A DNA stretch of 64,000 bases from assembly GCF_041248615.1 (NCBI RefSeq), contig NZ_CP158426.1, one strand, 5' to 3'. The translations under genes were made by a program, and so were the position numbers. This document shows positions 11,904-50,092 of the stretch, in pieces; position 1 is the first letter of the stretch, and every line of letters starts with the position of its first letter. The notes under the pieces were generated by a model. That model was not told the origin of the DNA and did not search any database. It saw only the letters and a program-made list of their open reading frames with translations. The DNA is from Escherichia coli (GTDB lineage: Bacteria > Pseudomonadota > Gammaproteobacteria > Enterobacterales > Enterobacteriaceae).

Positions 11904-11961
11904 ATGTCTGCACCTGCACTGCCTGATGTCAGAACAGTATTTTGATGAATTGCCAGGGTTA

Positions 11962-12138
11962 CAATGGCACAAATACGGCACAGGAGGAAAATGTGGTGTA
12001 ATTGAATGTGAGGTAACTACTTCACCTTTCAGCCGGGCATCTCACCGAGCACGCGAGCAAAATCGATGCGATTATAAGTCGCAATGGCACAAATACGGCA
12101 CAAGAGGAGAACGTGGTTTACTTAAATGTGAGGTAACT
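11962..12138. repeat. Two 57-bp direct repeats (~89% identical) with 120-bp period next to thrW
   Basis: Copy 1 at 11962-12018 and copy 2 at 12082-12138, both beginning caatggcacaaatacggcaca and ending aatgtgaggtaact. Confidence 0.7.
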
Positions 12139-12150
12139 TATTGATTTAAA

Positions 12151-12226
12151 TGGTGCCGATAATAGGAGTCGAACCTACGACCTTCGCATTACGAATGCGC
12201 TGCTCTACCAACTGAGCTATATCGGC
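12151..12226 (-). tRNA. thrW: tRNA-Thr (anticodon CGT)
   Basis: 76-nt reverse-strand sequence GCCGATATAGCTCAGTTGGTAGAGCAGCGCATTCGTAATGCGAAGGTCGTAGGTTCGACTCCTATTATCGGCACCA with cloverleaf features. Confidence 0.9.
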
Positions 12227-20118: not shown

Positions 20119-20673
20119 TTATCCTTCGATAAAAGCCATCCCTGTAAATGTCCGTCTCGGGTTGCCACGTTCAATCTGGTGATGGAACATTCGCCGCCGC
20201 GATTTCAGCACCGCGCTATTTTCCTGTTGCTGTTGTTCCAGCGTCCAGGCAATCAGCAATCGCGCCAGCCGCTTGTTAGCATGCCCAGAAACAAGTTTTT
20301 GCGCCCATGATGAGGCCGATACGGACTCGGACAAATCCACTGAATAGTGCCGCACCAACTTTCGCTTAATGCCCATGCGTTATCGCCATCCAGAGAAATC
20401 AGCGCCGAACGCAGCGTGTCAGAGTAGCGGCCCGTTTCTGTTTCCAGCACCGTTACCGCGACGTCTTGCCGGGTAAAAACGACCAACAGAGAATAACGCT
20501 GCGCCAATCGGGTAGCCGCGTCCGGGGTGTAAATCTGGCATCCCTACTACGCGCTGCATGTTGGGTAAATTTGCCGTGGTGTGTAATTGTTGAATCGCTA
20601 AACTCTCGATCCACAGGTCATCAGATGCGATGGTAAATACCGCATCGGATAAGGGACGAATATATTTGCCCAT
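20119..20673 (-). pseudogene. prfH: Decayed prfH (release-factor homologue) and upstream rtcB-like fragment (ykfJ-like)
   Basis: Three overlapping ORFs in different frames; the 5' piece has an RtcB N-terminal motif ([14 protein letters not shown]), the 3' pieces are release-factor-like. Confidence 0.55.
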
Positions 20674-38342: not shown

Positions 38343-39080
38343 TCACGAGCCGCGCAATAAGCGGTTGCCCGCGTCGCTGATATCTTCGGCGGTTTTCATC
38401 ATCTTGATCTGCGCTTCAAACTGGCGGTTCATGGCGATGGACGACATCATCTCGCTCACCGCCGAGACGTTACTGCCCTCCAGAAAACCGCCGCTAACTT
38501 TGATGTTTTCATCACGCTGGGCCGGAACGCCGTCGGCAGTTATCAGCATCCCTTCAGGATTTTTCGCCAGGTTAGCGACAGGAATATCCACCAGCTTCAG
38601 GCGGTCGATATCCATGGTTGCAGTCACGTCGCCGTCATCGGGCGTCACCGACAGCGTGCCGTCGCTGCCAAACGAAGCAATGGCGTTCGGCGGCAGAATG
38701 ATCGGGCCGTTATCCCCCAGCACCAGATTGCCGTCGATGGTCAGTTGCCCCTGGTCGTCCTGCTGAATGTTGCCGTTGCGGGTATACACTTCGTTGCCGT
38801 TTTTATCCTGCACCGCAATGTAACCCGCGCCCTGAATCGCCACGTCCAGCGGGCGTTCGGTTTTCTCCGCTACACCCGTGCTGTCGTTCACGCCGCTGGC
38901 CCCTTCCTGCGCCATATAGCGCGTGTCGAAGCCGCCGCCTTTCACCTTGTCGTTGGTCGCCATCGCCATGTCGGCGCGAAAACCGTTGGTGTTGACGTTC
39001 GCCAGGTTGTTGGCGCTAATCTGCTGCTCGTACAGGGTCTGAGAAGCACCGCTCAGGGCGGTATAAATCAGGCGGTCCAT
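38343..39080 (-). CDS. lfgF: Proximal rod protein FlgF homologue
   Basis: 245 aa rod family. Confidence 0.85.
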   Translation of the reverse strand: MDRLIYTALSGASQTLYEQQISANNLANVNTNGFRADMAMATNDKVKGGGFDTRYMAQEGASGVNDSTGVAEKTERPLDVAIQGAGYIAVQDKNGNEVYTRNGNIQQDDQGQLTIDGNLVLGDNGPIILPPNAIASFGSDGTLSVTPDDGDVTATMDIDRLKLVDIPVANLAKNPEGMLITADGVPAQRDENIKVSGGFLEGSNVSAVSEMMSSIAMNRQFEAQIKMMKTAEDISDAGNRLLRGS

Positions 39081-40282
39081 TACATTGCCTGGAACAGCGC
39101 GTCATCGAGCTGCGTGCTGGTGGCGATAACTTTGGTGTTGGCCTGATAGTTACGCTGGGCGGTCATCAGGTTGACCAGTTCGCTGGTGATATCGACGTTA
39201 GAGCTTTCGAGCACGCCCGACGATAGCGTGCCGCAGGTGCCGGAGCCGGGAACGCCAATCAGCGGGGTGCCGGATTCCCCGGTTTGTACCCACGCGGTGC
39301 CGCTCACCGCTTCGAGTCCGTTTTCATTCGGGAAAGTCGCCAGCACCACCTGGCCCTGCAACATGCGCTCGCCGTTGCTGTAGGTGGCGTAAACTTTGCC
39401 ATCGTCATCGACCTGCACACCGTTTTGCGTTGCGGAGGCGTAGCCGTTGGCGGCGTTGGTGGTGACCGAAAATTCAGAGCCGTATTGCGTACAGGTGGAG
39501 TAATCGACGGTTAAGTCGATGGGTGCGGCGGCGTCGGTCTGAAACTCAATGGTCTGTGGCGTGGTTGGCGAGGTCAGCTTCCCGGTGTTCGGGTCGAAGG
39601 TTAATGTCGTCGCCGGAACGCCAGTCTGCTGCTGACCGTCGAAGGTGTACTGCACTTCCCAGGTGTTGTCGCTGGTTTTGGTGAAATACTGGCATACCGA
39701 GTGTTCGTTACCTAATGAGTCATATACCGTGGTGGTGTAGCTGTCGGTATACGAGCTGCTGTTGGTCGCGTCGAACGGTACGGTTGTACGGTCTATAGCC
39801 GCATCGCTGGCATCGAAGTTAGCGGTAAAGGTCAGGCTGCTGCTGGCCTGCGCCGGGATATTGCCGGTTTTGATCTGGATATCGGTGACCGTACCGGTTT
39901 GCAGAGTGCCCGTGTCATCGACCGGATAACCCTGTAAATAAGCGCCCGAGGCGTTGACAATATAGCCGTTTTTGTCGGTTTCAAACGATCCGGCGCGGGT
40001 ATAAGAAATGTTGCCCGCGCTGTCGCAGGTAACAAAAAAGCCGTCGTTGTTAATCGCCAGATCCAGCGCGTTACCGGTGGAGACCAGCGAACCGCCGCGC
40101 GAAATACTTTGCGCGGTGCCTGCCACGCTGACGCCCATCGCCTGACTTCCGGCATACATGGCTGAAAACTGGGTGGTCATCGACTTATAGCCTACCGTTC
40201 CGGCGTTGGCGATGTTGTTACTGATCCCGTCGAGCTGTTCGTTAACGGCATTCAGCCCCGTTGCGGCAATTTCATAACTCAT
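39080..40282 (-). CDS. lfgE: Hook protein FlgE homologue
   Basis: 400 aa, conserved hook termini. Confidence 0.85.
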   Translation of the reverse strand: MSYEIAATGLNAVNEQLDGISNNIANAGTVGYKSMTTQFSAMYAGSQAMGVSVAGTAQSISRGGSLVSTGNALDLAINNDGFFVTCDSAGNISYTRAGSFETDKNGYIVNASGAYLQGYPVDDTGTLQTGTVTDIQIKTGNIPAQASSSLTFTANFDASDAAIDRTTVPFDATNSSSYTDSYTTTVYDSLGNEHSVCQYFTKTSDNTWEVQYTFDGQQQTGVPATTLTFDPNTGKLTSPTTPQTIEFQTDAAAPIDLTVDYSTCTQYGSEFSVTTNAANGYASATQNGVQVDDDGKVYATYSNGERMLQGQVVLATFPNENGLEAVSGTAWVQTGESGTPLIGVPGSGTCGTLSSGVLESSNVDITSELVNLMTAQRNYQANTKVIATSTQLDDALFQAM

Positions 40283-40328
40283 TGTTTCTTCCTGTTAATT
40301 CAAATTTTGACAGCGTGCCCGTTGTTTT

Positions 40329-40409
40329 GCCGGATGCGGCGTGAACGCCTTATCCGGCCTACAAAACCATGCAGTTTCATGTAGGCCTGATAAGCGAAGC
40401 GCATCAGGC
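40329..40409. repeat. BIME: two inverted REP elements between lfgD and lfgE; first unit identical to the one at 35270
   Basis: gccggatgcggcgtgaacgccttatccggcctaca ... gtaggcctgataagcgaagcgcatcaggc. Confidence 0.7.
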
Positions 40410-40425
40410 AATTTGGCACCGGACA

Positions 40426-41139
40426 TCACGCCACATCACTGTCGGCATCGGGTACGCCAAACTGGCTAATCATGGTGAACGGCACTTCGCCCACGCCTGC
40501 AACATTGAGCACCGGAGAGCTGCCGTCGAGCGGGATGCGCACATCTTCCACTTCGCCGGAGACTTCAATCGGCACCTCTTCTTCCCCGGTGTTGGTGACC
40601 ACCGAGACGTCGTAATCGCCCGGCGGGATACCGTAATCCGCCGGATTAATCGAGAAATCGACCTGGCCTGGCCCGACGGACGAACTGCCTTCCGGGATCA
40701 GCGACACCGTATAGTCATCGCCTGCGGCATCGGTAAAGTGGAGATCGGCGGTGGTACAGGCGTCGTCAAGCGTGGCGCGACCATTAATGGTCTGGTCGCT
40801 CACCTGCAAGGCGGTGGTCTGCACCATAATGTCGTCACCCACCAGGTTGCCGAGCGCCATCACCTGAATGTTGCTCATCAGCACCGCGTTGGTGTTGGCC
40901 TGCACACTCATCTCTTCCATCATCGCCACCTGCGCCATCGAAGAAAGCTGGTCGATATATTCGGTGGCGTCAGTCGGGTCGGTCGGGTCCTGGTTTTGGA
41001 TCTCAGCGACAAACAGCGTCAGGAAAGTATCAACGGGCGAGCTATCGCTGCTACTTTGCGTGTCGCTGGCCGCCACGTTGTTGCTTTCCGCCGTGGCGGT
41101 CGGCTGCGGCGATTGCGCATTCAGCGCCAGGGTATTCAT
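40426..41139 (-). CDS. lfgD: Hook capping/scaffold protein FlgD homologue
   Basis: 237 aa, conserved TFLTLFVAEIQNQDPTDP. Confidence 0.8.
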   Translation of the reverse strand: MNTLALNAQSPQPTATAESNNVAASDTQSSSDSSPVDTFLTLFVAEIQNQDPTDPTDATEYIDQLSSMAQVAMMEEMSVQANTNAVLMSNIQVMALGNLVGDDIMVQTTALQVSDQTINGRATLDDACTTADLHFTDAAGDDYTVSLIPEGSSSVGPGQVDFSINPADYGIPPGDYDVSVVTNTGEEEVPIEVSGEVEDVRIPLDGSSPVLNVAGVGEVPFTMISQFGVPDADSDVA

Positions 41140-41570
41140 CAGGCTTCTCCCAGTTTCAGCAGGCTTTGCTGCATACTTTTCACGTTGTTGAGCACATCGA
41201 CATTGGTTTCAAAATCGCGCGAGGCCGACATCATGTCCGCCATCTGTTCCACCACGTTGACGTCGGGATACCAGACATCCCCGTTAGCATCGGCGAGCGG
41301 CGAATGCGGTTCATAGCGTTTCACCGCCCCGCCGGTTTGCAGCACGTCCTGCACCTGCACGCTGGCACCATCAATGGCATGGCGATGCGTTCCCGCCAGC
41401 AAGCTGTGGTGATACACCGCCGCAAACACCGGGCTGCGCGCTTTATACGCCTGCGCCTCGCTGCCGGCAGGTGCATTGGCATTCGCCAGGTTACTGGCAA
41501 CGGTATTCAGACGTAGCGTTTGCGCCGTCATCGCCGAGCCGGAAATCTGATAGATATCAGTAAATGACAT
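41139..41570 (-). CDS. lfgC: Proximal rod protein FlgC homologue (intact)
   Basis: 143 aa, conserved rod termini. Confidence 0.85.
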   Translation of the reverse strand: MSFTDIYQISGSAMTAQTLRLNTVASNLANANAPAGSEAQAYKARSPVFAAVYHHSLLAGTHRHAIDGASVQVQDVLQTGGAVKRYEPHSPLADANGDVWYPDVNVVEQMADMMSASRDFETNVDVLNNVKSMQQSLLKLGEA

Positions 41571-41572
41571 GC

Positions 41573-41908
41573 TTATTTCCCTTCAATGGCCTCTCTGATG
41601 CCGCTGATTTGCAGATTCAGAAAGGTCAGACTGCTTTGATAATCCATACTATTTTGTGAAAACCGCGCCTGTTCGCTGTTTAGTTCCACGGTGTTGCCAT
41701 CTTCCGACGGCTGCATCGGCACGCGGTACTGGACATCCACCGCCGCGTTATTTGCCCGTTGCATCTCCCTGGCAAAATCAATATCTTTAGCCTTGAAATT
41801 TGGCGTATCGACGTTCGCCAGATTCGCAGTCAGTAGCTCGGTCCTCTCAAGACGTAACTTCACTGCCTGCGGATGCACTCCCAATGCCTGTTGAAAACTG
41901 ATCCCCAT
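41573..41908 (-). CDS. lfgB: Proximal rod protein FlgB homologue (start at internal Met MGISFQQ)
   Basis: Rod N-terminal motif LTANLANVDTPNFKAKD; ORF-track start would place the start codon inside the sigma-54 promoter footprint. Confidence 0.8.
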   Translation of the reverse strand: MGISFQQALGVHPQAVKLRLERTELLTANLANVDTPNFKAKDIDFAREMQRANNAAVDVQYRVPMQPSEDGNTVELNSEQARFSQNSMDYQSSLTFLNLQISGIREAIEGK

Positions 41909-41945
41909 TTCCTGCGTCACTCCTGCTTCAATCCGCATACGCTAA

Positions 41946-41960
41946 GCAATCGCCGTGCCA
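41946..41960 (-). promoter_or_regulatory. Sigma-54 promoter for lfgB-L operon
   Basis: Reverse strand TGGCAC-GGCGA-TTGC, perfect consensus. Confidence 0.6.
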
Positions 41961-41989
41961 TTTTTTAAGTCACTGATGAGAAAGGGTTT

Positions 41990-42727
41990 ATGAGTTTTCA
42001 ATTTTGCAGGCGGAAGTTGTTCTTCCTCCTGGTGCTGGCCTTACCGGGCTACGCCGCCGTCCACCCCGTGCAACACAGCGCGCGGGAACAAGTCAACGCC
42101 CAGGTGCTGAATGCCGCGAGCCAGGAAATTGAATCGATGGCGCAGCAACGGCAGTGGCATGACTATCGCTACACCTTTAAGGTCTACATTCCCTCGCAGA
42201 TTGCGACCGCCGCCCCCTGTGCGACAACACCCGGCGTTACGCTCACTTCGCCTGCGGACATCGCCCTCAACCGGATGAACTTCACCGTCAGTTGCCCGCA
42301 AAGCTGGCAGATGAACGTGGCGGTGCGCCCGGATGTACTGGTGCCCGTGGTGATGACAAAGTCACTGGTTGCCCGCGATACGCCGCTCACGGCGAATGAT
42401 GTGGAGTTGAAGCCCTACAACTTCAGCGCCCAGCGGCGGGATGTGTTGATGGAGCTCGATGACGCAATTGGTTTAAGCAGTAAGCACGCGTTGCAACCGG
42501 GCAGGCCCATCACCAAAGAAGAGCTGGTTTCGCCAGTGCTGGTCGAACGCGATCAGCCGGTGATGATTGTTTACCAGAGCGCGGGGATCACCGCCTCGAT
42601 GCCCGGCGTGGCGCTGAAAAATGGCCGCAAAGGCGAGATGGTGAAAGTACGTAACGCAAGCAGCCAGCGGGTCATCAGCGCGATGGTGGCAGAAAGCGGC
42701 GTGGTGACGACGGTAAGCGCGGAGTAA
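41990..42727 (+). CDS. lfgA: P-ring assembly chaperone FlgA homologue
   Basis: 245 aa, signal peptide, divergent from lfgB. Confidence 0.7.
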   Translation: MSFQFCRRKLFFLLVLALPGYAAVHPVQHSAREQVNAQVLNAASQEIESMAQQRQWHDYRYTFKVYIPSQIATAAPCATTPGVTLTSPADIALNRMNFTVSCPQSWQMNVAVRPDVLVPVVMTKSLVARDTPLTANDVELKPYNFSAQRRDVLMELDDAIGLSSKHALQPGRPITKEELVSPVLVERDQPVMIVYQSAGITASMPGVALKNGRKGEMVKVRNASSQRVISAMVAESGVVTTVSAE

Positions 42728-42914
42728 TTTGCTGTAATACCGCGTAGCATATGTATGACTAGCTCCCAATATTCTGACTTTCTGACAAATTTCATTGTGT
42801 ATTTTGGATAATTATTGAGCACTCAATCACTACTGTTTAAATATCCAGATGATAACTATTTCATCTGGGTCAAATGAGTGATATTGTATCACCAATAAGA
42901 CCTACGGGGGTGCT

Positions 42915-44339
42915 ATGTCTGAATTTGAATTGCTCGTGAAAGATCTTCTTTTAAAATCAGAAGAAGACGAGAAAAAGCGACAAGAAAAAGATCGAGAATT
43001 AATTTCAAAGGTTCTTGAAATCTATGATCAAAAATATGTTGCAGAACTCCTACGAAAAGTAGGAAAAAATGAATGGAGCAGAGAAACACTTAACCGTTGG
43101 ATAAATGGTAAGTGTAACCCTAAACAATTAACTTCTGCTGAGGAAACTTTACTTCGAAAGATGCTCCCAGAACCTCCCGAACATCATCCTAACTATACAT
43201 TTCGTTTTATTGATTTATTCGCAGGGATTGGTGGTATTCGTAAAGGCTTCGAAAATATTGGTGGGCAGTGTGTTTTTACTAGCGAATGGAATAAAGAAGC
43301 GGTAAGAACCTACAAAGCTAATTGGTTTAATGATGAACTAAATCATAAATTTAATCTTGATATACGAGAAGTCACTTTAAGTGATAGAGATGATGTTTCC
43401 GAAATGGAAGCCTATAATCATATAGACAAAAATATTCCAGATCATGATGTCCTTCTGGCCGGTTTTCCATGTCAACCCTTTAGTCTGGCTGGGGTAAGCA
43501 AGAAAAATTCTCTGGGGCGTGCACATGGTTTTGAATGTGAGGCACAAGGAACACTATTTTTTGATGTCGCTCGAATTATTAAATCAAAAAAACCAGCTAT
43601 TTTTGTGCTTGAGAATGTGAAGAACCTTAAAAGTCATGATAAAGGTAAGACTTTTAAAGTCATCATGGAAACACTCAATGAATTAGGGTATGAAGTCGCC
43701 GATGCTGGTGTGACTGGCTCAGATGATCCTAAAATTATAGATGGAAAACATTTTTTACCCCAACATCGTGAGCGTATAGTGTTGGTAGGATTTCGTAGGG
43801 ATCTAAATATTCACAAGGATTTCACGTTACGAAATATTAACCGCTTTTACCCTCAAAACAGGCCAACATTTGGTGAATTATTAGATCATGATGTTGACGA
43901 CAAATATATTTTGACTCCAAGGTTATGGGAATATCTTTACAATTATGCAAAAAAACATGCAGCAAAAGGAAATGGATTTGGTTTTGGTTTAGTGGATCCT
44001 AAAAATCCAGATAGTATCGCACGAACGCTGTCTGCTCGTTACCATAAAGATGGCTCTGAAATACTGATCGATCGTGGCTGGGATAAGGCTGTCGGTGAAA
44101 TCGATTTTAGTAATCCAGCGAATCAAGAGAATCGACCAAGAAGACTGACACCTCATGAATGTGCCAGGTTAATGGGTTTTGAAAAACCAGGGGGAAGACC
44201 TTTTAGAATACCTGTATCAGATACTCAAGCTTATAGACAATTTGGGAACTCAGTTGTTGTGCCAGTATTTGAAGCTGTAGCAAGATTACTAGAACCGTAC
44301 ATACAAAAGGCTGTCAGCATGCAAGTTATTAACGATTAA
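42915..44339 (+). CDS. DNA cytosine-5 methyltransferase, M.EcoRII/Dcm family (predicted CCWGG specificity)
   Basis: Motif I FAGIGG, motif [10 protein letters not shown], motif VI ENV; near full-length match to recalled M.EcoRII/Dcm; AT-rich. Confidence 0.9.
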
Positions 44340-44363
44340 TAATAATTAACTTTCACTATTGTG

Positions 44364-44386
44364 AGGCCTTTTTTATTAAAGGCCTC
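44364..44386. terminator. Bidirectional hairpin between convergent methylase and endonuclease genes
   Basis: gaggcc-ttttttattaaa-ggcctc. Confidence 0.55.
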
Positions 44387-44426
44387 TAAATATATAATCA
44401 TAAGTTATTATAAGTATACTTTTATA

Positions 44427-45632
44427 TTATACAAAATCTTCATACAGCGTTATTAACTGTGTGATAAAACCCTCTAACGTTAATAATCCCTCCCTGATTT
44501 CCTCCGGATATTTTTTATGAAGAGGGGAAGGTACAACCAAGGTGACACCTTCAGCTCTCATTTCGTTAAATTGAGCAACTGAGACACCCTCTTGTAAGGT
44601 AAACAAATATATTTTGTTGATTTTATTTGCTTCATTGAGTGCCTGACGCCACCGATCCTTACATGTTGTTTTTACAGCAAGCATACGGAGTTTTTCTCTT
44701 GGAAAGTGATCATCATGGTAAGCTGCCGCTGATGGAAAAAGAAAATCGGGTTTCTTTTTTCCTTCAGTAATACATTGAGTAGCAAAATGATGCAGTCCAT
44801 GCTCAATAAAAATTTGCTCAAGATGTAGCTCCAGTGATTTCCCGGCTCGAGATTTTCTTCGATTACTAACAGAGTTAGCCATAGCTATAAAATCATCTAC
44901 AGAACCAAACCCTTGACGGATGATGTCCAGTACGTGAATTTCTTCAACCATTAGAAAGAGATCATATTCAATACGGCGGCGTTCTAAAAGTTGGTCATCT
45001 GGACTGGTTACGCCTGTTGGGTAATAACCCGCAGCATATTGAATAATCTCTAAGCCAGAAGGAAAGCTATGTTTCCAGCTTTCCGGAATAACATATTCCT
45101 TTTGAGAGATTTTTGGCCTTGATGCGAGTACACCAAGTATTTCACTGGCAGGCCCAAACATTAAAGTTCCAGGAATGATCTCCCCAATAGCTGATTCCAG
45201 TACATCCTCTTCTTCTGGGCTAACACAAACCCATACATCAACACTTTTGCTGTCTCTCCCTGGCTCATGTTCAAACGCAAGCACAGACAAAGCACCTGTA
45301 TTTTCCGGATCCTGTAGGGGACTGCCAGCCCCCCACCGAGTGATGCGTTTTTCATTTCTTGTTTGCCCGAAATACTTATTATTGTAGTAAATAGCGCGAA
45401 CCTCACTGTCTACACATTCATGAGAGGAATAAGTTGCGCGCAATAAAACCGAAGGATTTTTTTCTGACGTATGATCTATAGATGGGAAAAGTTCAGCGAC
45501 GATACCAGAAGGGATATATACCCCCACTTGATGCCCTCCTGTTGCACCAGTGTCGTTTGCTGAAAGACGTTTAATATAGAGATAGTTGTTACCACCGACC
45601 TTATCAAGCAGCCAATCTTGTAATCCTGACAT
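44427..45632 (-). CDS. Type IIE restriction endonuclease, EcoRII family
   Basis: 401 aa; N-terminus YIKRLSANDTGATGGHQVG and catalytic domain match recalled R.EcoRII closely. Confidence 0.9.
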   Translation of the reverse strand: MSGLQDWLLDKVGGNNYLYIKRLSANDTGATGGHQVGVYIPSGIVAELFPSIDHTSEKNPSVLLRATYSSHECVDSEVRAIYYNNKYFGQTRNEKRITRWGAGSPLQDPENTGALSVLAFEHEPGRDSKSVDVWVCVSPEEEDVLESAIGEIIPGTLMFGPASEILGVLASRPKISQKEYVIPESWKHSFPSGLEIIQYAAGYYPTGVTSPDDQLLERRRIEYDLFLMVEEIHVLDIIRQGFGSVDDFIAMANSVSNRRKSRAGKSLELHLEQIFIEHGLHHFATQCITEGKKKPDFLFPSAAAYHDDHFPREKLRMLAVKTTCKDRWRQALNEANKINKIYLFTLQEGVSVAQFNEMRAEGVTLVVPSPLHKKYPEEIREGLLTLEGFITQLITLYEDFV

Positions 45633-45728
45633 AAGACATCCTTATTTTTGCATAGTATCCGATTCAGATTTTTCCACATATCCATCAGAACGACCAGAAC
45701 CAACATATCTGAACAAAAAGTAAATATG

Positions 45729-45736
45729 CGATAACG
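45729..45736 (+). promoter_or_regulatory. Possible sigma-28 -35 element (TAAAGTTT) upstream of lfgM; -10 match weak
   Basis: Perfect -35 consensus, but downstream -10 (aaccgctt) matches GCCGATAA at only 4 of 8 positions. Confidence 0.25.
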
Positions 45737-45804
45737 ATTAAAGTTTTGCCGCCTGTTAACCGCTTTACCGGAGTAACCCACCTAAATACCGAGACGAGGT
45801 TGCG

Positions 45805-46080
45805 ATGAAAATCACCCCGACTATGCCAGGCAATCGCCCGACAGTCACAACGGCAGGCTCCAGCCAGCCGCGCAAAGGCACGGCGACCACCACGACGCTA
45901 AGCGCCGACGACATTACCCAGGCGGGATTGCAGTCTGCCCAGCAAACACTGAACGACCAGCAAGAGAGCGATATCGACAGCGATAAAGTGGCGCAAATGC
46001 AGGCGATGCTGGCCTCCGGCAGCCTGCAAGTGGACACCGAACAGTTAGCCAGCGACATGCTGAGTTTTTTCCAGAACTAA
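45805..46080 (+). CDS. lfgM: Anti-sigma-28 factor FlgM homologue
   Basis: 91 aa, conserved C-terminal sigma-28-binding region. Confidence 0.75.
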   Translation: MKITPTMPGNRPTVTTAGSSQPRKGTATTTTLSADDITQAGLQSAQQTLNDQQESDIDSDKVAQMQAMLASGSLQVDTEQLASDMLSFFQN

Positions 46081-46092
46081 GAGGCCGATGAA

Positions 46093-46521
46093 GTGAGTAT
46101 CCGGTTACAACAGGTGAAGGCGTTGTTGCAGGGAATTCGTGACGATGACGCGCTGTATGATTCCCTGCGCGAACTTCTCCAGCGTCAGCGGATCTGCATG
46201 ATTCGCCGCGCCAGCGAAGAGCTGCTGGCGGTAAACGAGGAGATAACCCATCACTATGAGCAGTTGCATGGGCATAGCCATCAGCGGCACAGCCTGCTGA
46301 AAATGCTTAATGTCAGTGTAAATCGTGACGGTCTGGCGCAGGTTTTTGCCTGGCTTCCGGCGGTACAAAAAGCGGCAGCACAACAGTTGTGGCAACGCCT
46401 TGAGCAAAAAGCGGAACGCTGCAAAGCCTACAACGACAAAAACGGCGAGCTGTTGATTCGCCAGTATGAATTTATTCAGTCTTTTTTAGGTAGCGAAGCA
46501 GATTTTCTCTATCAGGAATAA
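46093..46521 (+). CDS. lfgN: FlgN-like export chaperone (GTG start)
   Basis: 142 aa helical protein immediately after flgM homologue. Confidence 0.6.
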   Translation: MSIRLQQVKALLQGIRDDDALYDSLRELLQRQRICMIRRASEELLAVNEEITHHYEQLHGHSHQRHSLLKMLNVSVNRDGLAQVFAWLPAVQKAAAQQLWQRLEQKAERCKAYNDKNGELLIRQYEFIQSFLGSEADFLYQE

Positions 46522-46597
46522 CGCGAATACCTTCCCCATAGCGGAAATGGATTTTCCGCCTGATTCACAATCCTTTGTTTTTGATTATAAAAATTCC

Positions 46598-46613
46598 CGG
46601 CACGCTTATTGCA
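46598..46613 (+). promoter_or_regulatory. Sigma-54 promoter upstream of the unknown 311-aa gene and transferase gene
   Basis: CGGCAC-GCTTA-TTGCA with correct GG-N10-GC spacing; lies inside the ORF-track N-terminus, implying the real start is at 46648. Confidence 0.5.
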
Positions 46614-46647
46614 CATTCCGCAAAGTAATAAAGACTGGAAGCCACCT

Positions 46648-47580
46648 ATGAGTTTTATTGAATGTTACGAACCGGAATACGTGCGCAATTTTATGACGCA
46701 ATATCCCGATTCGCCTTTGTACATCCGCAAGGTGTGGAAAAACGAGATTCGCCAGAGCCTGATGCTGACAGAGCCAGAAAGCTGCGAAGCGGTGCTCAAC
46801 GATGCCAGGGCCTTTGATTTACAGCTCACCTACCGCCCGGCGGAAGATAATGCCGCAGAACTCTCCGCGCGCGATGCGATAGTAAACCAGGTCATTTTGA
46901 GCACCCTTACGCTCCCCGATTTACCCCCGGAGCTTTCACTGTACGCCGTCGGGATTTTGCTCTCCCGCGCCAGCAAAATGCCGGGCAGAGACGGAGATAT
47001 TCTTGCCCGCTTGACGACGCTGCCACAGGCGCTGGCCGATCATGCACAAAAAGGCACGCTACAGGCACAGTTCGCCCAGCTGCCGCCCGTGCCACAGCTG
47101 GCGCGCCAGTTGATGACGCTGCTCGGCAGTTGTGCGTTTGACTGGTCGATTCTGCCGGAAAGCCCGCGCAAAACTTCGCTGCCGTTGCAGATGCCTTTGC
47201 TGGCGCTACATGACGCCAACAGCGAAGCCCTGTTACAACAGCAGCTTCAGGCACAGTGGCAAACCACCTGGCAACAGCATTTTGCCACCGCGCCCTGGAT
47301 GATGCGTAACTGGCTGATTTACCGCGTTTACCATGAGGTGATTGGGCAGGCAGACGGAGCAGATTATTGCCCGCTGGTGTGCGATTTTTATCTTATCCGC
47401 ACGTTAATCAGTTTATGGACGCTGGATGGTTCTCCGCTGCGACAGGAGGATATTTTCGCCCTCTTTGCCATGTTTGAACGCTGGCGAGCCAGTGAAAATG
47501 CTGTGCTGATTCGCCAACAAATTCAGGCTGAACGTTCCGCAGATCCCCTGCTTTATGCGTTTTCACTGCTGTCTTGCTAA
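46648..47580 (+). CDS. Hypothetical protein (311 aa), no recognisable domain; start at MSFIECYEPE
   Basis: ORF with RBS ggaag 7 nt upstream; sits between flgN homologue and the large transferase gene. Confidence 0.5.
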   Translation: MSFIECYEPEYVRNFMTQYPDSPLYIRKVWKNEIRQSLMLTEPESCEAVLNDARAFDLQLTYRPAEDNAAELSARDAIVNQVILSTLTLPDLPPELSLYAVGILLSRASKMPGRDGDILARLTTLPQALADHAQKGTLQAQFAQLPPVPQLARQLMTLLGSCAFDWSILPESPRKTSLPLQMPLLALHDANSEALLQQQLQAQWQTTWQQHFATAPWMMRNWLIYRVYHEVIGQADGADYCPLVCDFYLIRTLISLWTLDGSPLRQEDIFALFAMFERWRASENAVLIRQQIQAERSADPLLYAFSLLSC

Positions 47581-47626
47581 CGCTTTTTGGCCGGTTTTCC
47601 CGGCCTTATCGACTTCGTAAACTATC

Positions 47627-50092
47627 ATGCAAACCCTCATCAAAACACTCGCCACCCAGCGCGAAAAACCGTTCGTCAGCGTCGTCACGCCCACATGGAA
47701 CCGTAGCGCATTCCTGCCGTACCTGCTCTATATGTACCGCTATCAGGACTACCCGGCAGACCGCCGCGAACTGGTCATCCTCGACGACTCGCCGCAAAGC
47801 CATCAGCACATCATCGACCGTTTGACCGATGGCACGCCGGAAGCCTTTAACATCCGCTACATCCATCATCAGGAAAGACTGCCGCTGGGCAAAAAACGCA
47901 ACATGCTCAATGAACTGGCAGTGGGGGAATATATCCTCTGCATGGATGACGACGACTACTACCCGGCAGATAAAATCTCTTACACCATCGCCATAATGCA
48001 AAAACACCGGGCGCTCATCTCCGGTTCCGACCAGATCCCCATCTGGTACAGCCACATCAATCGCATCTTCCAAAGCCGCAGCTTTGGCTCACATAACATC
48101 CTCAACGGCACCTTTTGCTATCACCGTAACTACCTGAAAAAGCACCGTTACGACGATGATTGTAATTTAGGCGAAGAGAAAAGTTTCACCAACAATTTCA
48201 GCGTTAACCCGCTACAACTGCCCGGCGAGCGCACGATTTTGTGTATCTCGCATAGCCACAACACCTTTGATAAAGACTTTATTCTCGGGGCCAGCACGCC
48301 AGTAAACGCGGCGCTTACGGATATCGTCCGCGATCCGCTGCTCCGCAACGCCTATCTGAGTCTGCATAACGCCACTCATCACCAGGCGATCAACCATCAG
48401 GCGATCGATCAGGTCGTACTGATCAATCTGGATAAACGCCCGGATCGCTTACAACAGATCCGTGAAGAACTGGCATTGCTGCATATTCCACCTGAGAAGA
48501 TCACCCGCCTTGCCGCCAGTGAAGATCAAAACGGCCAACGGGGACGACGCCAGTCGCACTTGCAGGCGCTGCGCCTGGCGCAACAGCACGGCTGGCAAAA
48601 CTACCTGCTGCTGGAAGATGACGCGGTTATTCTCAAGCAGGAAAAACATATTCAGGTACTGAACACGCTGCTGGCGAGCCTGGCGAAAATTCCCTGGCAG
48701 GTGATGATCCTTGGCGGCGAAATTTCGCAGGGAACGATGCTAAAAAGTTTGCCGGGGCTGGTGCACGCGCGGGACTGCCGCAAGGTGTGCGCTTATCTGG
48801 TGAACAGCCGCTACTACCCGCAACTGGCGCAGCAGATGAGCAACGATGAGCACTCGCTGGAAGAGTGCTGGCAGCCGCTGCTACACGCCGACAAATGGCT
48901 GGCCTGTTACCCGAGCCTTTGTTACCAGCGACCGGGCTTTAGTGATATCGAGAAAAAAACGACTGACAACATTGCTCACTATTTCAATAAGTTACCCGTA
49001 GCCACCAAGCCATCTACATTACCCATCGCCGATACCATCGGCTTTTTTATGGAAACCTCATTCCACTACGCGCTCTACCGCCCAATCATCACCGCTCTGC
49101 AGGCGCAGGGGCAGAGCTGTACGCTGGTGATCAATGACCGCGTATTTAAACCATTTCTGGATGAAATGCTGGCGACGCTAAAAAGCATTGACGATCCGCA
49201 GCTCAAAGGTATGCGCTTATCTGAAATGCAGGCGCACGGTCAGCGGGTAAAATGCCTGGTCAGCCCCTATCACACGCCCGCGCTCAGTGGCCTGGCAGCG
49301 GTGAACGTCCGCGCCATGTACGGCTTAGCCAAAGAGGCGTGGAACCACGCCGACTGGAATCGTTTTTACCAACGCATTTTGTGTTATAGCCACTACAGCC
49401 AGCAGACACTGGCGCATTTCGGTAGCGCAAAAGTGGTCGGCAATCCACGTTTCGACGCCTGGCATAACGGCACGTTTGCCCGCACTCTGCCGGAAAATAT
49501 TCAACCCGATTCCCGTAAACCTACGGTGCTCTACGCCCCCACGTTTGGCGCATTAAGCTCCCTGCCCCACTGGGCAGAAAAATTGGGGCGCTTAAGCGGT
49601 GATGTGAACCTGATTTGCAAACTGCACCACGGCACCTGCTCGCGCCCGGAAGAAGCTGCATCGCTGGCACTGGCGCGCAGGCATTTAAAACAGCGCACCG
49701 ACTCCGCCCGCCACACGCTGGCGCTACTGGCAAAGGCCGATTACGTGCTGACCGATAACAGCGGCTTTATTTTCGATGCTATCCACGTTGATAAGCGGGT
49801 GATCCTGCTCGACTTTCCGGGCATGAGTGAATTACTCGAAGGCGAGAAAAGCTACTCCACGCCGGAGAGCGCCGATCAGCAAATCCGCGAAATATTGCCG
49901 GTGGCTCATGATATGGCAGAGTTGCGTTACTTGTTGTCAGAGGCGTTTGACTGGGGGGCGGTGCAGGCGCGGCTTACGAAGATTCGTCATCACTATTGCG
50001 ATGCGTTTATGGATGGCAAGGCGGGAGAACGGGCGGCGATGGTGATTGTGGAGGCGCTGGCGGACAAGGAATCGTCAGGGATATGTCGATAA
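47627..50092 (+). CDS. Three-domain transferase: GT2 glycosyltransferase + GT25-like domain + TagF-like CDP-glycerol glycerophosphotransferase domain
   Basis: N-terminal DxD-containing GT2 (CMDDDDYY), central GT25-like (VVLINLDKRPDRL), C-terminal TagF/TagB-type motif (LYAPTFG). Confidence 0.75.
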   Translation: MQTLIKTLATQREKPFVSVVTPTWNRSAFLPYLLYMYRYQDYPADRRELVILDDSPQSHQHIIDRLTDGTPEAFNIRYIHHQERLPLGKKRNMLNELAVGEYILCMDDDDYYPADKISYTIAIMQKHRALISGSDQIPIWYSHINRIFQSRSFGSHNILNGTFCYHRNYLKKHRYDDDCNLGEEKSFTNNFSVNPLQLPGERTILCISHSHNTFDKDFILGASTPVNAALTDIVRDPLLRNAYLSLHNATHHQAINHQAIDQVVLINLDKRPDRLQQIREELALLHIPPEKITRLAASEDQNGQRGRRQSHLQALRLAQQHGWQNYLLLEDDAVILKQEKHIQVLNTLLASLAKIPWQVMILGGEISQGTMLKSLPGLVHARDCRKVCAYLVNSRYYPQLAQQMSNDEHSLEECWQPLLHADKWLACYPSLCYQRPGFSDIEKKTTDNIAHYFNKLPVATKPSTLPIADTIGFFMETSFHYALYRPIITALQAQGQSCTLVINDRVFKPFLDEMLATLKSIDDPQLKGMRLSEMQAHGQRVKCLVSPYHTPALSGLAAVNVRAMYGLAKEAWNHADWNRFYQRILCYSHYSQQTLAHFGSAKVVGNPRFDAWHNGTFARTLPENIQPDSRKPTVLYAPTFGALSSLPHWAEKLGRLSGDVNLICKLHHGTCSRPEEAASLALARRHLKQRTDSARHTLALLAKADYVLTDNSGFIFDAIHVDKRVILLDFPGMSELLEGEKSYSTPESADQQIREILPVAHDMAELRYLLSEAFDWGAVQARLTKIRHHYCDAFMDGKAGERAAMVIVEALADKESSGICR

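Follow-up and report, generated by a model that had tools for sequence, protein, structure and literature searches.

What occupies the AT-rich block between flgA and flgM in a Flag-2 lateral-flagellar locus of Escherichia coli, when did it arrive there, and what has kept it? Here, we address this question using a window of 64,000 nucleotides of contig NZ_CP158426.1 (assembly GCF_041248615.1). A preliminary description of this DNA had proposed an EcoRII-like restriction-modification (R-M) gene pair that was acquired late and whose placement deserved attention. We conclude that the pair is an ordinary, already-described R-M module and that the insert carrying it, far from being new or a recent event, is a rare Flag-2 variant of long standing. 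From the sequence comparisons below, we consider it likely that the module is complete, that it goes back to an old, single insertion into Flag-2, and that it has been kept functional by purifying selection.

Boundaries and composition of the insert

Based on blastn against the empty site of strain NY1601, the insert is 3,002 bp long, lies between Flag-2 flgA and flgM, and stands in place of 5 bp (GCAGG) that are present in the flgA-flgM spacer when the site is empty. The insert and its neighbors comprise the following features:

41990 to 42727, plus strand: Flag-2 flgA (lfgA), left neighbor (TIGR03170, E = 4e-35; RefSeq annotation)
42733 to 45734, no strand: AT-rich insert (blastn versus the empty site of strain NY1601)
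42733 to 42914, plus strand: non-coding leader 5' of the methyltransferase gene (no ORF in the ORF listing)
42915 to 44339, plus strand: methyltransferase gene (M), 474-aa C5-cytosine methyltransferase (NCBIfam NF007772, TIGR00675)
44340 to 44426, no strand: 87-bp spacer between the convergent genes, with a 9-bp-stem hairpin at 44363-44386
44427 to 45632, minus strand: endonuclease gene (R), 401-aa EcoRII-family type IIE restriction endonuclease (phmmer versus PDB 1NA6, Pfam)
45633 to 45734, minus strand: non-coding region 5' of R up to the right junction (junction and insert comparison)
45739 to 46080, plus strand: right neighbor region, including Flag-2 flgM (lfgM) at 45805-46080 (TIGR03824, E = 6e-13)

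The block had first been placed at 42780-45700; the block is real, but the empty-site comparison sets its limits slightly wider on both sides. The contrast noted between an AT-rich block and GC-rich flagellar flanks was borne out, with a GC content of 0.382 for the whole insert compared with 0.533 for the whole window, and with windowed values of 0.35-0.45 across 42800-45600 compared with 0.55-0.61 in the flanking flagellar genes. The ORF listing has only two long ORFs within the insert and no mobility ORFs; similarly, there is no transposase or integrase gene in the insert, a search for terminal inverted repeats and flanking direct repeats found none, and the empty-site comparison revealed no target-site duplication but the 5-bp replacement instead. 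With no mobility gene, repeats, or duplication, the insert does not qualify as an autonomous mobile element, be it an IS, a transposon, an integron cassette, a prophage, or an integrative island. CCWGG is not avoided within the insert (4 sites observed versus 2.5 expected). We also considered whether the empty site of 88COLEC, which has ~75 extra bp, is an excision scar; however, the extra sequence reflects a longer flgA (810 versus 738 bp) and holds no remnant of the insert.

The two genes and their intergenic hairpin

M scores 911.9 bits against NCBIfam NF007772 (cutoff 710) and 372 bits against TIGR00675 (cutoff 100.65), and in an alignment with K-12 Dcm, the C5-MTase motifs I (FxGxG), IV (PCQ), VI (ENV), VIII (QxRxR), IX, and X (GN; GNSVVVP) are all intact. 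M shares 83% of its residues with an M.EcoRII-type protein from a plasmid and 66% with K-12 Dcm; the corresponding values are 80% and 34% for residues 1-95 and 78% and 66% for the target-recognition region. The original assignment to the M.EcoRII/Dcm family therefore stands, supported by the 912 bits against NF007772, and can be refined: judged by the 83% versus 66% identity, M is an M.EcoRII orthologue and not a copy of dcm. For the M.EcoRII-type N-terminal domain DNA_meth_N (PF18284), there is a precomputed match on the E. marmotae orthologue of 474 aa. Host Dcm-Vsr, the orphan CCWGG methyltransferase of E. coli, shares with M the C5-MTase subfamily model, the catalytic motifs, and the predicted target; unlike host Dcm-Vsr, from which it differs as from K-12 Dcm (66% identity overall, 34% in the N-terminal 95 residues), M has no overlapping vsr gene, is paired with an endonuclease, and has a different genome location. 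The predicted target of M is the inner cytosine of CCWGG.

R aligns with EcoRII (1NA6) over residues 1-400 with 69.5% identity (phmmer against the PDB, E = 2.9e-188) and matches two Pfam domains, EcoRII-N (residues 16-164, E = 4e-60) and EcoRII-C (residues 226-390, E = 3e-70), in agreement with its initial description as an EcoRII-family endonuclease. It has the two-domain architecture of an N-terminal effector domain (B3-like pseudobarrel) and a C-terminal PD-(D/E)XK catalytic domain. Using the catalytic and recognition residues listed in PMC2770665 (EcoRII numbering), we found that the active-site residues E271, D299, K324, and E337 are all identical in R, as E268, D296, K321, and E334. Also identical are all eight residues of the CC:GG readout (K328, D329, R330, N260) and the flipped-base pocket (R222, E225, Y226, F229) as well as the effector-domain base contacts N28, H36, Q37, Y85, R94, E96, and R98 (7/7). 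Five of the six phosphate contacts are kept, K92Q being the sole change at a DNA contact. The identity to the characterized EcoRII is only ~70%, so that the CCWGG specificity of R is a prediction. A loss of catalytic residues had been raised as a possibility; upon alignment, the residues of R and the motifs of M proved to be all kept.

The two genes converge on a hairpin, GAGGCCTTT-TTTATT-AAAGGCCTC, at 44363-44386 with a perfect 9-bp stem. The stem is the same in every E. coli allele class and in E. marmotae, and variation is found around it, in a loop of 6, 5, or 3 nt and a spacer of 87, 86, 84, or 63 bp. The proposal of convergent genes sharing a bidirectional hairpin is correct for the layout and the hairpin, the 94-nt context of which folds with −21.8 kcal/mol (z = −4.5; 0 of 200 shuffles fold as well), but neither strand has a U-tract at the hairpin and the terminator scan called no intrinsic terminator there. 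We suggest that the hairpin probably stops read-through in both directions. Upstream of M, the leader contains only a weak sigma-70-like match, which is on the opposite strand. M.EcoRII has been reported to be autoregulated and, by analogy, we presume that the leader is the promoter/operator region of M. Upstream of R, an imperfect 9-bp tandem repeat, CAGAACGAC CAGAACCAAC, is present at ~45686-45704, and ETEC1738 has an 18-bp expansion.

Relatives of the module

The plasmid-borne EcoRII/M.EcoRII system (1NA6, 3HQF, 3HQG) has the same makeup: its type IIE endonuclease (~401-404 aa) has two domains, its methyltransferase (~474-477 aa) has the N-terminal extension, and the genes converge on an intergenic hairpin. 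The insert pair shares with it all residues published for catalysis and CCWGG recognition. The identity to the plasmid/structural EcoRII proteins is ~70% for R and 83% for M. In contrast to the plasmid module, which has a GC content of 0.51, the insert is at 0.38, chromosomal, and fixed at one Flag-2 site, and its activity is predicted.

The pair forms its own 90%-identity cluster, with members in E. coli and E. marmotae only. The same convergent layout with an intergenic hairpin recurs in the plasmid module and in two chromosomal/prophage relatives. The nearest named relatives (R, 76-77% identity; M, 86.5%) are two-gene convergent cassettes in Klebsiella oxytoca, where the cassette lies in a P2-like prophage between a replication gene and a portal gene, and in Leclercia adecarboxylata, where it lies in the marC/gntP spacer. 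Both cassettes are AT-rich too (GC 0.40-0.42, with flanks at 0.50-0.56), and the sequences of their intergenic hairpins differ from that of the insert. Among 5.8 billion protein clusters, we found no close donor; outside the Escherichia cluster, the next relatives are at 82% and 77%, and the 82% relative is a 1.5-kb contig without context and with a GC content of 0.49.

Distribution and flagellar context

Of the complete E. coli genomes, 5,426 in number, 28 have the insert and 1,250 have nothing between flgA and flgM that interrupts the junction; among the Flag-2-positive complete genomes, 28 of 1,278 carry it and 98% lack it. Thus, the identical pair is not a feature of all Flag-2 loci; its presence in all of them had been named in the preliminary description as the outcome that would speak against an insertion of recent date. 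As a non-flagellar, embedded, and variably present segment between lfgA and lfgM, the insert is Flag-2 cargo. The placement of the pair in flag-2, which had seemed to deserve attention, has been known since 2020: in their account of cargo genes, De Maayer, Pillay and Coutinho (2020, BMC Genomics 21:100, PMC6993521) describe flag-2 loci as general hotspots for unrelated cargo genes and list EcoRII (pfam09019, 401 aa) and Dcm-family (PRK10458, 474 aa) cargo genes in 21 Escherichia strains, the same pair as the present one. The insert sits outside the main variable regions VR1 and VR2 of that account. To its gene content, the present analysis adds boundaries, a single origin, prevalence in complete genomes, codivergence with E. 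marmotae, a selection analysis, and co-occurrence with dcm.

The stop codon of flgA is located 5 bp before the left junction. Beyond the right junction, a TAAAGTTT motif begins after 4 nt and is followed by flgM; it could possibly be a sigma-28-type −35 element. The regular expression TAAAG-N13-17-CCGNTNN matches 6 sites in the window compared with ~1.7 in shuffles, and none upstream of lafA. We speculate that the insert might spare the class-3 flgM promoter. The Flag-2 genes of this strain have no pseudogene flags, i.e., the insert lies within an intact Flag-2 locus. The intact genes, the motif so close to the right junction, and the separation of flgM/N from flgA read-through by the insert would fit a functional link to the lateral flagellum, with selection having favored the site for an effect of the module on flgM/flgN expression or with the R-M genes under the control of flagellar regulators. 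However, flag-2 loci attract cargo in general according to the same account (PMC6993521), close relatives of the module occur in non-flagellar contexts, and the insert is missing from nearly all Flag-2-positive E. coli, making such a link very improbable.

Age of the insertion

In the 10 of the 28 E. coli carriers that we examined for junctions and ORFs, and in five E. marmotae loci, the junctions are identical. Because all ten carriers share them, the junctions indicate that the insertion happened once. Between E. coli and E. marmotae, the insert has diverged by 6.0-7.2% and the flanks by 6.0-7.6%; these similar amounts argue that the insertion is old. Instead of going back to a common ancestor, the pair at the same junctions in the two species might also reflect introgression from E. 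marmotae. Within E. coli, inserts differ by up to 4.1%. Three carriers have inserts that differ by ≤0.1% and flanks that differ by 2-4%; because within E. coli the flanks have diverged more than the insert, the history of the insert includes recombinational spread. On the flank tree, empty-site genomes and carriers are intermingled. The search for an outgroup, one scan of a genome collection with the conserved end of flgA, returned a single locus labeled Pseudocitrobacter vendiensis; its flanks, which differ by 2.3-2.9% from one E. coli allele, fall within the variation seen in E. coli, and it cannot polarize the insertion.

Do these data allow the module to have come recently, by horizontal transfer, from a donor with AT-rich DNA, with the identical junctions reflecting a very recent spread of a single insertion? 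The strong compositional contrast, which has not been ameliorated, and the three nearly identical inserts, which testify to some recent recombinational spread, would be in keeping with this scenario. However, the divergence of the inserts, both within E. coli and from E. marmotae, is in step with that of the flanks, and no close donor was found among the 5.8 billion protein clusters, so that we regard a recent acquisition as hardly likely. The earlier suggestion of a later acquisition holds relative to the order-wide lfgNMABC gene order, but not as a recent event, given the identical junctions in E. marmotae, the divergence of 6-7% in the insert against 6-7.6% in the flanks, and dS values that reach 0.13-0.21 within E. 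coli. We suggest instead that the module would have entered the flgA-flgM spacer once, by illegitimate recombination and with no dedicated mobility gene, around or before the divergence of E. coli and E. marmotae, and that it would afterwards have persisted as a rare presence/absence polymorphism, moved among Flag-2 alleles by homologous recombination.

Selection and predicted function

Both ORFs are full length in all ten E. coli carriers examined, i.e., in this strain and nine others, as well as in the five E. marmotae loci, matching the initial report of full-length genes with no frameshifts. dN/dS is 0.04-0.11 for M and 0.02-0.065 for R, with dS within E. coli of up to 0.13-0.21. These values (0.02-0.11 overall) indicate that both genes are kept by purifying selection. 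AT-rich DNA in E. coli, such as that of the insert with its GC content of 0.38, is a typical target of H-NS and, because of this, expression of the pair may be low. H-NS silencing and a methyltransferase that seems redundant given host Dcm would also suit a silenced or decaying relic, with an inactive or unexpressed endonuclease, that is intact by chance or is kept for a role other than restriction, e.g., extra cytosine methylation affecting expression. At the divergence observed here, a relic would gather frameshifts and nonsynonymous changes; by contrast, the ORFs are full length throughout, R has a dN/dS of at most 0.065, and none of the residues for catalysis or recognition has been lost from R. 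We therefore consider a relic quite unlikely.

In our preferred reading, the pair would act as a two-gene EcoRII-type R-M module of type IIE specific for CCWGG. The methyltransferase would methylate the inner cytosine of CCWGG; the N-terminal effector domain of the endonuclease would bind one unmethylated CCWGG, and the C-terminal catalytic dimer would cut another. As an enzyme of the EcoRII family, R would be expected to cleave a CCWGG site only with a second one occupied, and C5 methylation of the inner cytosine should block it. Incoming DNA without Dcm-type methylation would be restricted, presumably to the benefit of the host in defence.

As had been pointed out, a CCWGG-specific module in E. 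coli coexists with a host Dcm acting on the same site: scored by presence, chromosomal dcm is found in 27 of the 28 carriers, including this strain. This bears on whether the pair is a selfish addiction module that persists not by host defence but by post-segregational killing by residual endonuclease. Type II R-M systems including EcoRII have been described as selfish and can kill after their loss (PMC3424554), and a bare two-gene cassette in unrelated sites (the Flag-2 spacer, the K. oxytoca prophage, and the Leclercia marC/gntP spacer) accords with such behavior. However, Dcm counteracts EcoRII parasitism and protects against it (PMC3424554), and because the Dcm of the carriers methylates the same site, loss of the pair should not be lethal. 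Moreover, the site is empty in 1,250 genomes, empty sites and carriers are intermingled on the flank tree, and addiction alone does not account for strong purifying selection on R over a dS of ~0.1-0.2. Altogether, an addiction module is a doubtful explanation. Tentatively, and as one possibility, the pair could be a long-lived, perhaps trans-species presence/absence polymorphism selected for defence in Dcm-methylating hosts. If so, an EcoRII-type enzyme would still pay against non-Dcm DNA, and its own methyltransferase would be indispensable, with Dcm methylation too incomplete to protect the chromosome.

With textbook families and the exact pair published in 2020, the locus has little value as a discovery. 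It is a natural example of an R-M cassette of just two genes that was inserted with no mobility genes, of an R-M system long coexisting under strong purifying selection with an orphan methyltransferase predicted to have the same specificity, and of presence/absence alleles recombining in a chromosomal locus that is hypervariable. In strain engineering, carriers are expected to restrict DNA from dcm-negative cloning hosts. Among the carriers, DCE7 is a natural strain without dcm.

The EcoRII-type pair is a bare two-gene cassette

The window matches the chromosome of E. coli NRZ14408 (NZ_LT599825.1) at 100% identity and is E. coli chromosome. The EcoRII-like pair, which consists of the endonuclease R and the methyltransferase M, lies in the Flag-2 (lateral-flagellar) locus as follows.

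41990-42727, flgA of Flag-2 (TIGR03170)
42733-45734, insert of 3,002 bp, in place of 5 bp (GCAGG) present in the empty site
42915-44339, + strand, M, 474-aa ORF between flgA and flgM, M.EcoRII-type C5-methyltransferase
44363-44386, perfect hairpin with a 9-bp stem (GAGGCCTTT-TTTATT-AAAGGCCTC) in the 87-bp spacer between the R and M stop codons
44427-45632, - strand, R, 401-aa ORF between flgA and flgM, convergent with M, EcoRII-family endonuclease
45805-46080, flgM of Flag-2 (TIGR03824)

Both R and M are annotated in RefSeq. GC content is 0.35-0.45 over 42.8-45.6 kb versus 0.55-0.61 in the adjoining flagellar genes, and averages 0.382 in the insert versus 0.533 in the window. The boundaries were set by alignment to the empty, i.e., uninterrupted, flgA-flgM junction of strain NY1601. 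Beyond R and M, an ORF scan of the insert found no notable ORF, and a search of its ends found neither terminal inverted repeats nor flanking direct repeats. With two ORFs only and no terminal or flanking repeats, an IS, a transposon, an integron cassette and a prophage are ruled out; the insert is a bare two-gene cassette. Every descriptive point of the preliminary description (the pair, its convergent layout, the hairpin, the AT-richness and the full-length ORFs) holds.

The hairpin has a fold z-score of -4.5, and 0 of 200 shuffles folded equally well. A U-tract is absent on both sides, and a terminator scan gave no call there. The alleles have loops of 6, 5 or 3 nt and spacers of 87, 86, 84 or 63 bp; the stem is invariant in all of them, E. 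marmotae included, and thus provides no covariation evidence. This conservation is consistent with a kept role, most plausibly in halting convergent transcription. Separately, the non-coding DNA upstream of the R gene contains a 9-bp tandem repeat (CAGAACGAC, window ~45686-45704) that is 18 bp, or two copies, longer in ETEC1738 (L006, ~6700-6757); therefore, the number of repeats upstream of R, in its presumed promoter region, differs between strains.

R and M are predicted to recognize CCWGG

R aligns over residues 1-400 with the EcoRII crystal-structure sequence 1NA6 (E = 2.9e-188, 69.5% identity) and contains both Pfam domains, EcoRII-N and EcoRII-C. We checked one by one the functional residues of EcoRII described by Golovenko et al. 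2009 (PMC2770665). The active site (E271, D299, K324, E337), the CC:GG readout (triad K328-D329-R330 and N260), the flipped-base pocket (R222, E225, Y226, F229) and all seven base contacts of the effector domain (N28, H36, Q37, Y85, R94, E96, R98) are identical; among six phosphate contacts, one is altered (K92 to Q). CCWGG specificity and type IIE behaviour of the pair are, thus, strongly predicted from sequence.

M reaches 912 bits against the curated NCBIfam model of the Dcm subfamily (cutoff 710) and keeps C5-methyltransferase motifs I, IV, VI, VIII, IX and X. Its identity is 83% with a plasmid M.EcoRII-type protein (80% in the N-terminal 95 residues) versus 66% with K-12 Dcm (34% in the same residues). 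Because identity is higher to the plasmid protein, M is, judged by sequence, an M.EcoRII orthologue, and we rejected the idea that it is a duplicated dcm.

The insertion appears to be single and old

We searched 5,426 complete genomes of E. coli and matched the flgA-flgM region in 1,278, of which 1,250 have an uninterrupted junction and exactly 28 carry the insert, at the same chromosomal site in 28/28. In ten carriers chosen to span the whole identity range, the left (TAATTTGC followed by T...) and right (...GATAA followed by CGATTAAAGTTTT) junctions are identical, and eight empty sites, taken from highly dissimilar Flag-2 alleles, share the sequence TTTGC-GCNGG-NGATTAAAG. Five E. marmotae loci have the pair in the flgA-flgM interval too, with junctions matching those of E. 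coli; clustering at 90% identity places R in a group of 252 proteins, whose named members are all E. coli or Escherichia marmotae. The shared junctions are evidence for one insertion event behind the E. coli and E. marmotae carriers.

The four insert clades in E. coli differ by ≤4.1%, and their flanks by up to ~6%. Carriers interleave with empty genomes in a neighbour-joining tree built from the flanks; for example, the distance is 1.4% between NRZ14408 and the empty NY1601 and 1.1% between MS1266 and the empty Z1323. Moreover, three carriers have inserts ≤0.1% apart within flanks 2-4% apart. Interleaving and near-identical inserts in divergent flanks indicate that presence and absence have been exchanged by homologous recombination.

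Between E. marmotae and E. coli, the inserts differ by 6.0-7.2% and the flanks by 6.0-7.6%. Insert and flanks have, thus, diverged jointly across the species boundary, which is most simply read as an insertion older than, or about as old as, the split of the two species. Early introgression of the insert along with flanking DNA could have produced the same match. An insertion at or before the split bears on the suggestion that the pair was a later acquisition: the polarity was right, since the available text of De Maayer et al. 2020 (PMC6993521) gives the order lfgNMABC... as order-wide, so that, at a deeper level, the uninterrupted junction is the ancestral state; a reading of "later" as recent is contradicted by the E. 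marmotae co-divergence.

One genome-collection scan for an outgroup junction gave a single hit, labelled Pseudocitrobacter vendiensis (L030, NZ_CALSBS010000002.1), which falls inside E. coli diversity. Its flgA-flgM segment is 2.3-2.9% from one E. coli allele and its junction is of the E. coli empty type, reflecting either inter-genus Flag-2 transfer or a mislabelled or contaminated assembly.

A search for a donor among R relatives beyond the Escherichia cluster identified none; the nearest, at 82%, is on a 1.5-kb contig (GC 0.49). Relatives at 77% and 76% lie in a P2-like prophage of Klebsiella oxytoca and in the marC/gntP spacer of Leclercia adecarboxylata; like the insert, both cassettes are convergent and AT-rich (GC 0.40-0.42) in GC-richer DNA. 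The K. oxytoca cassette (L020, GCA_021373355.1, 4001-6668) is phage cargo, located between the GPA replication gene and the HNH/portal region and adjoining a ParE-like gene and a Dam-type methyltransferase. Plasmid copies of R are ~70% identical, and a homologue is found on 2,641 plasmids; one plasmid module shares the convergent R/M layout and intergenic hairpin with the insert but has a GC content of 0.51.

Both genes are constrained in hosts that mostly carry dcm

The R and M ORFs are full length in 10/10 E. coli carriers, as are the gene calls in 5/5 E. marmotae loci. For M, pairwise Nei-Gojobori estimates among the ten E. coli carriers put dN/dS at 0.04-0.11 with dS of up to 0.21; for R, dN/dS is 0.02-0.065 with dS of up to 0.13. 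These values show long-lasting strong purifying selection on both genes and argue against a decaying relic.

Takahashi et al. 2002 is reportedly the experimental source for Dcm protection against EcoRII parasitism. Using a chimeric query of insert DNA and K-12 dcm, we found dcm-homologous DNA elsewhere in the chromosome of 27/28 carriers, including NRZ14408. At megablast sensitivity, the sole exception is the pig isolate DCE7 (L010, NZ_CP090611.1), a natural dcm-lacking host of the pair; in its Flag-2 locus, an inserted ISEc13 element separates the lysine-N-methylase gene from the glycosyltransferase gene. The mildly interesting point is the strong constraint on both genes despite Dcm, which should render M redundant and any addiction ineffective. 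Orphan Dcm has the same target as EcoRII and protects against EcoRII parasitism (PMC3424554).

The Flag-2 context

The pair is an ordinary EcoRII-type cassette that has been reported before. The placement, which had been singled out as deserving attention, is as described but already in the literature: the available text of De Maayer et al. 2020 (PMC6993521) reports the pair in flag-2 loci (474-aa entry, AAI 98.6%) and describes these loci as hotspots for cargo genes. New here are the base-pair boundaries, the apparent single insertion, the prevalence of 28 versus 1,250, the E. marmotae co-divergence, the purifying selection on both genes and the near-universal co-residence with host dcm. Nothing ties R-M function to motility, and the cassette's relatives occupy non-flagellar sites.

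No Flag-2 gene of the window strain is flagged as a pseudogene. A TAAAGTTT motif, which we take to resemble the -35 element of sigma-28 promoters, starts 4 nt downstream of the right junction; flgM may thus retain its own promoter, without read-through from flgA. Two genes downstream of flgN are probably flagellin-modification genes of flag-2 variable region VR1.

46609-47580, FliB-like lysine-N-methylase, directly downstream of flgN (45.7 bits, under the NCBIfam cutoff of 85)
47627-50092, glycosyltransferase, 821 aa

In ETEC1738, the lysine-N-methylase gene is annotated as frameshifted (L006, locus 7668-8598). In 88COLEC, flgA, the P-ring chaperone gene, has 810 bp versus 738 bp, an in-frame variant of ~72 bp (L004, locus 1501-2310). 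The flgD-flgA and flgM-flgN segments (window 39000-49500, L001-L019) are unusually diverse in E. coli, commonly at 4-6% nucleotide divergence; UCPROB-002 Flag-2 is 7-8% from other strains overall, and its right flank is 13-16% diverged in two comparisons (Pseudocitrobacter-labelled and E. marmotae loci). Such diversity suggests that the alleles split long ago or were imported from other clades of Escherichia.

RefSeq also lists several pseudogenes or gene remnants outside Flag-2.

7756-8883, 11444-12023 and 20119-20673, an MFS transporter pseudogene with an internal stop, fragments of ykgR and LysR next to tRNA-Thr (12151-12226), and truncated prfH and rtcB
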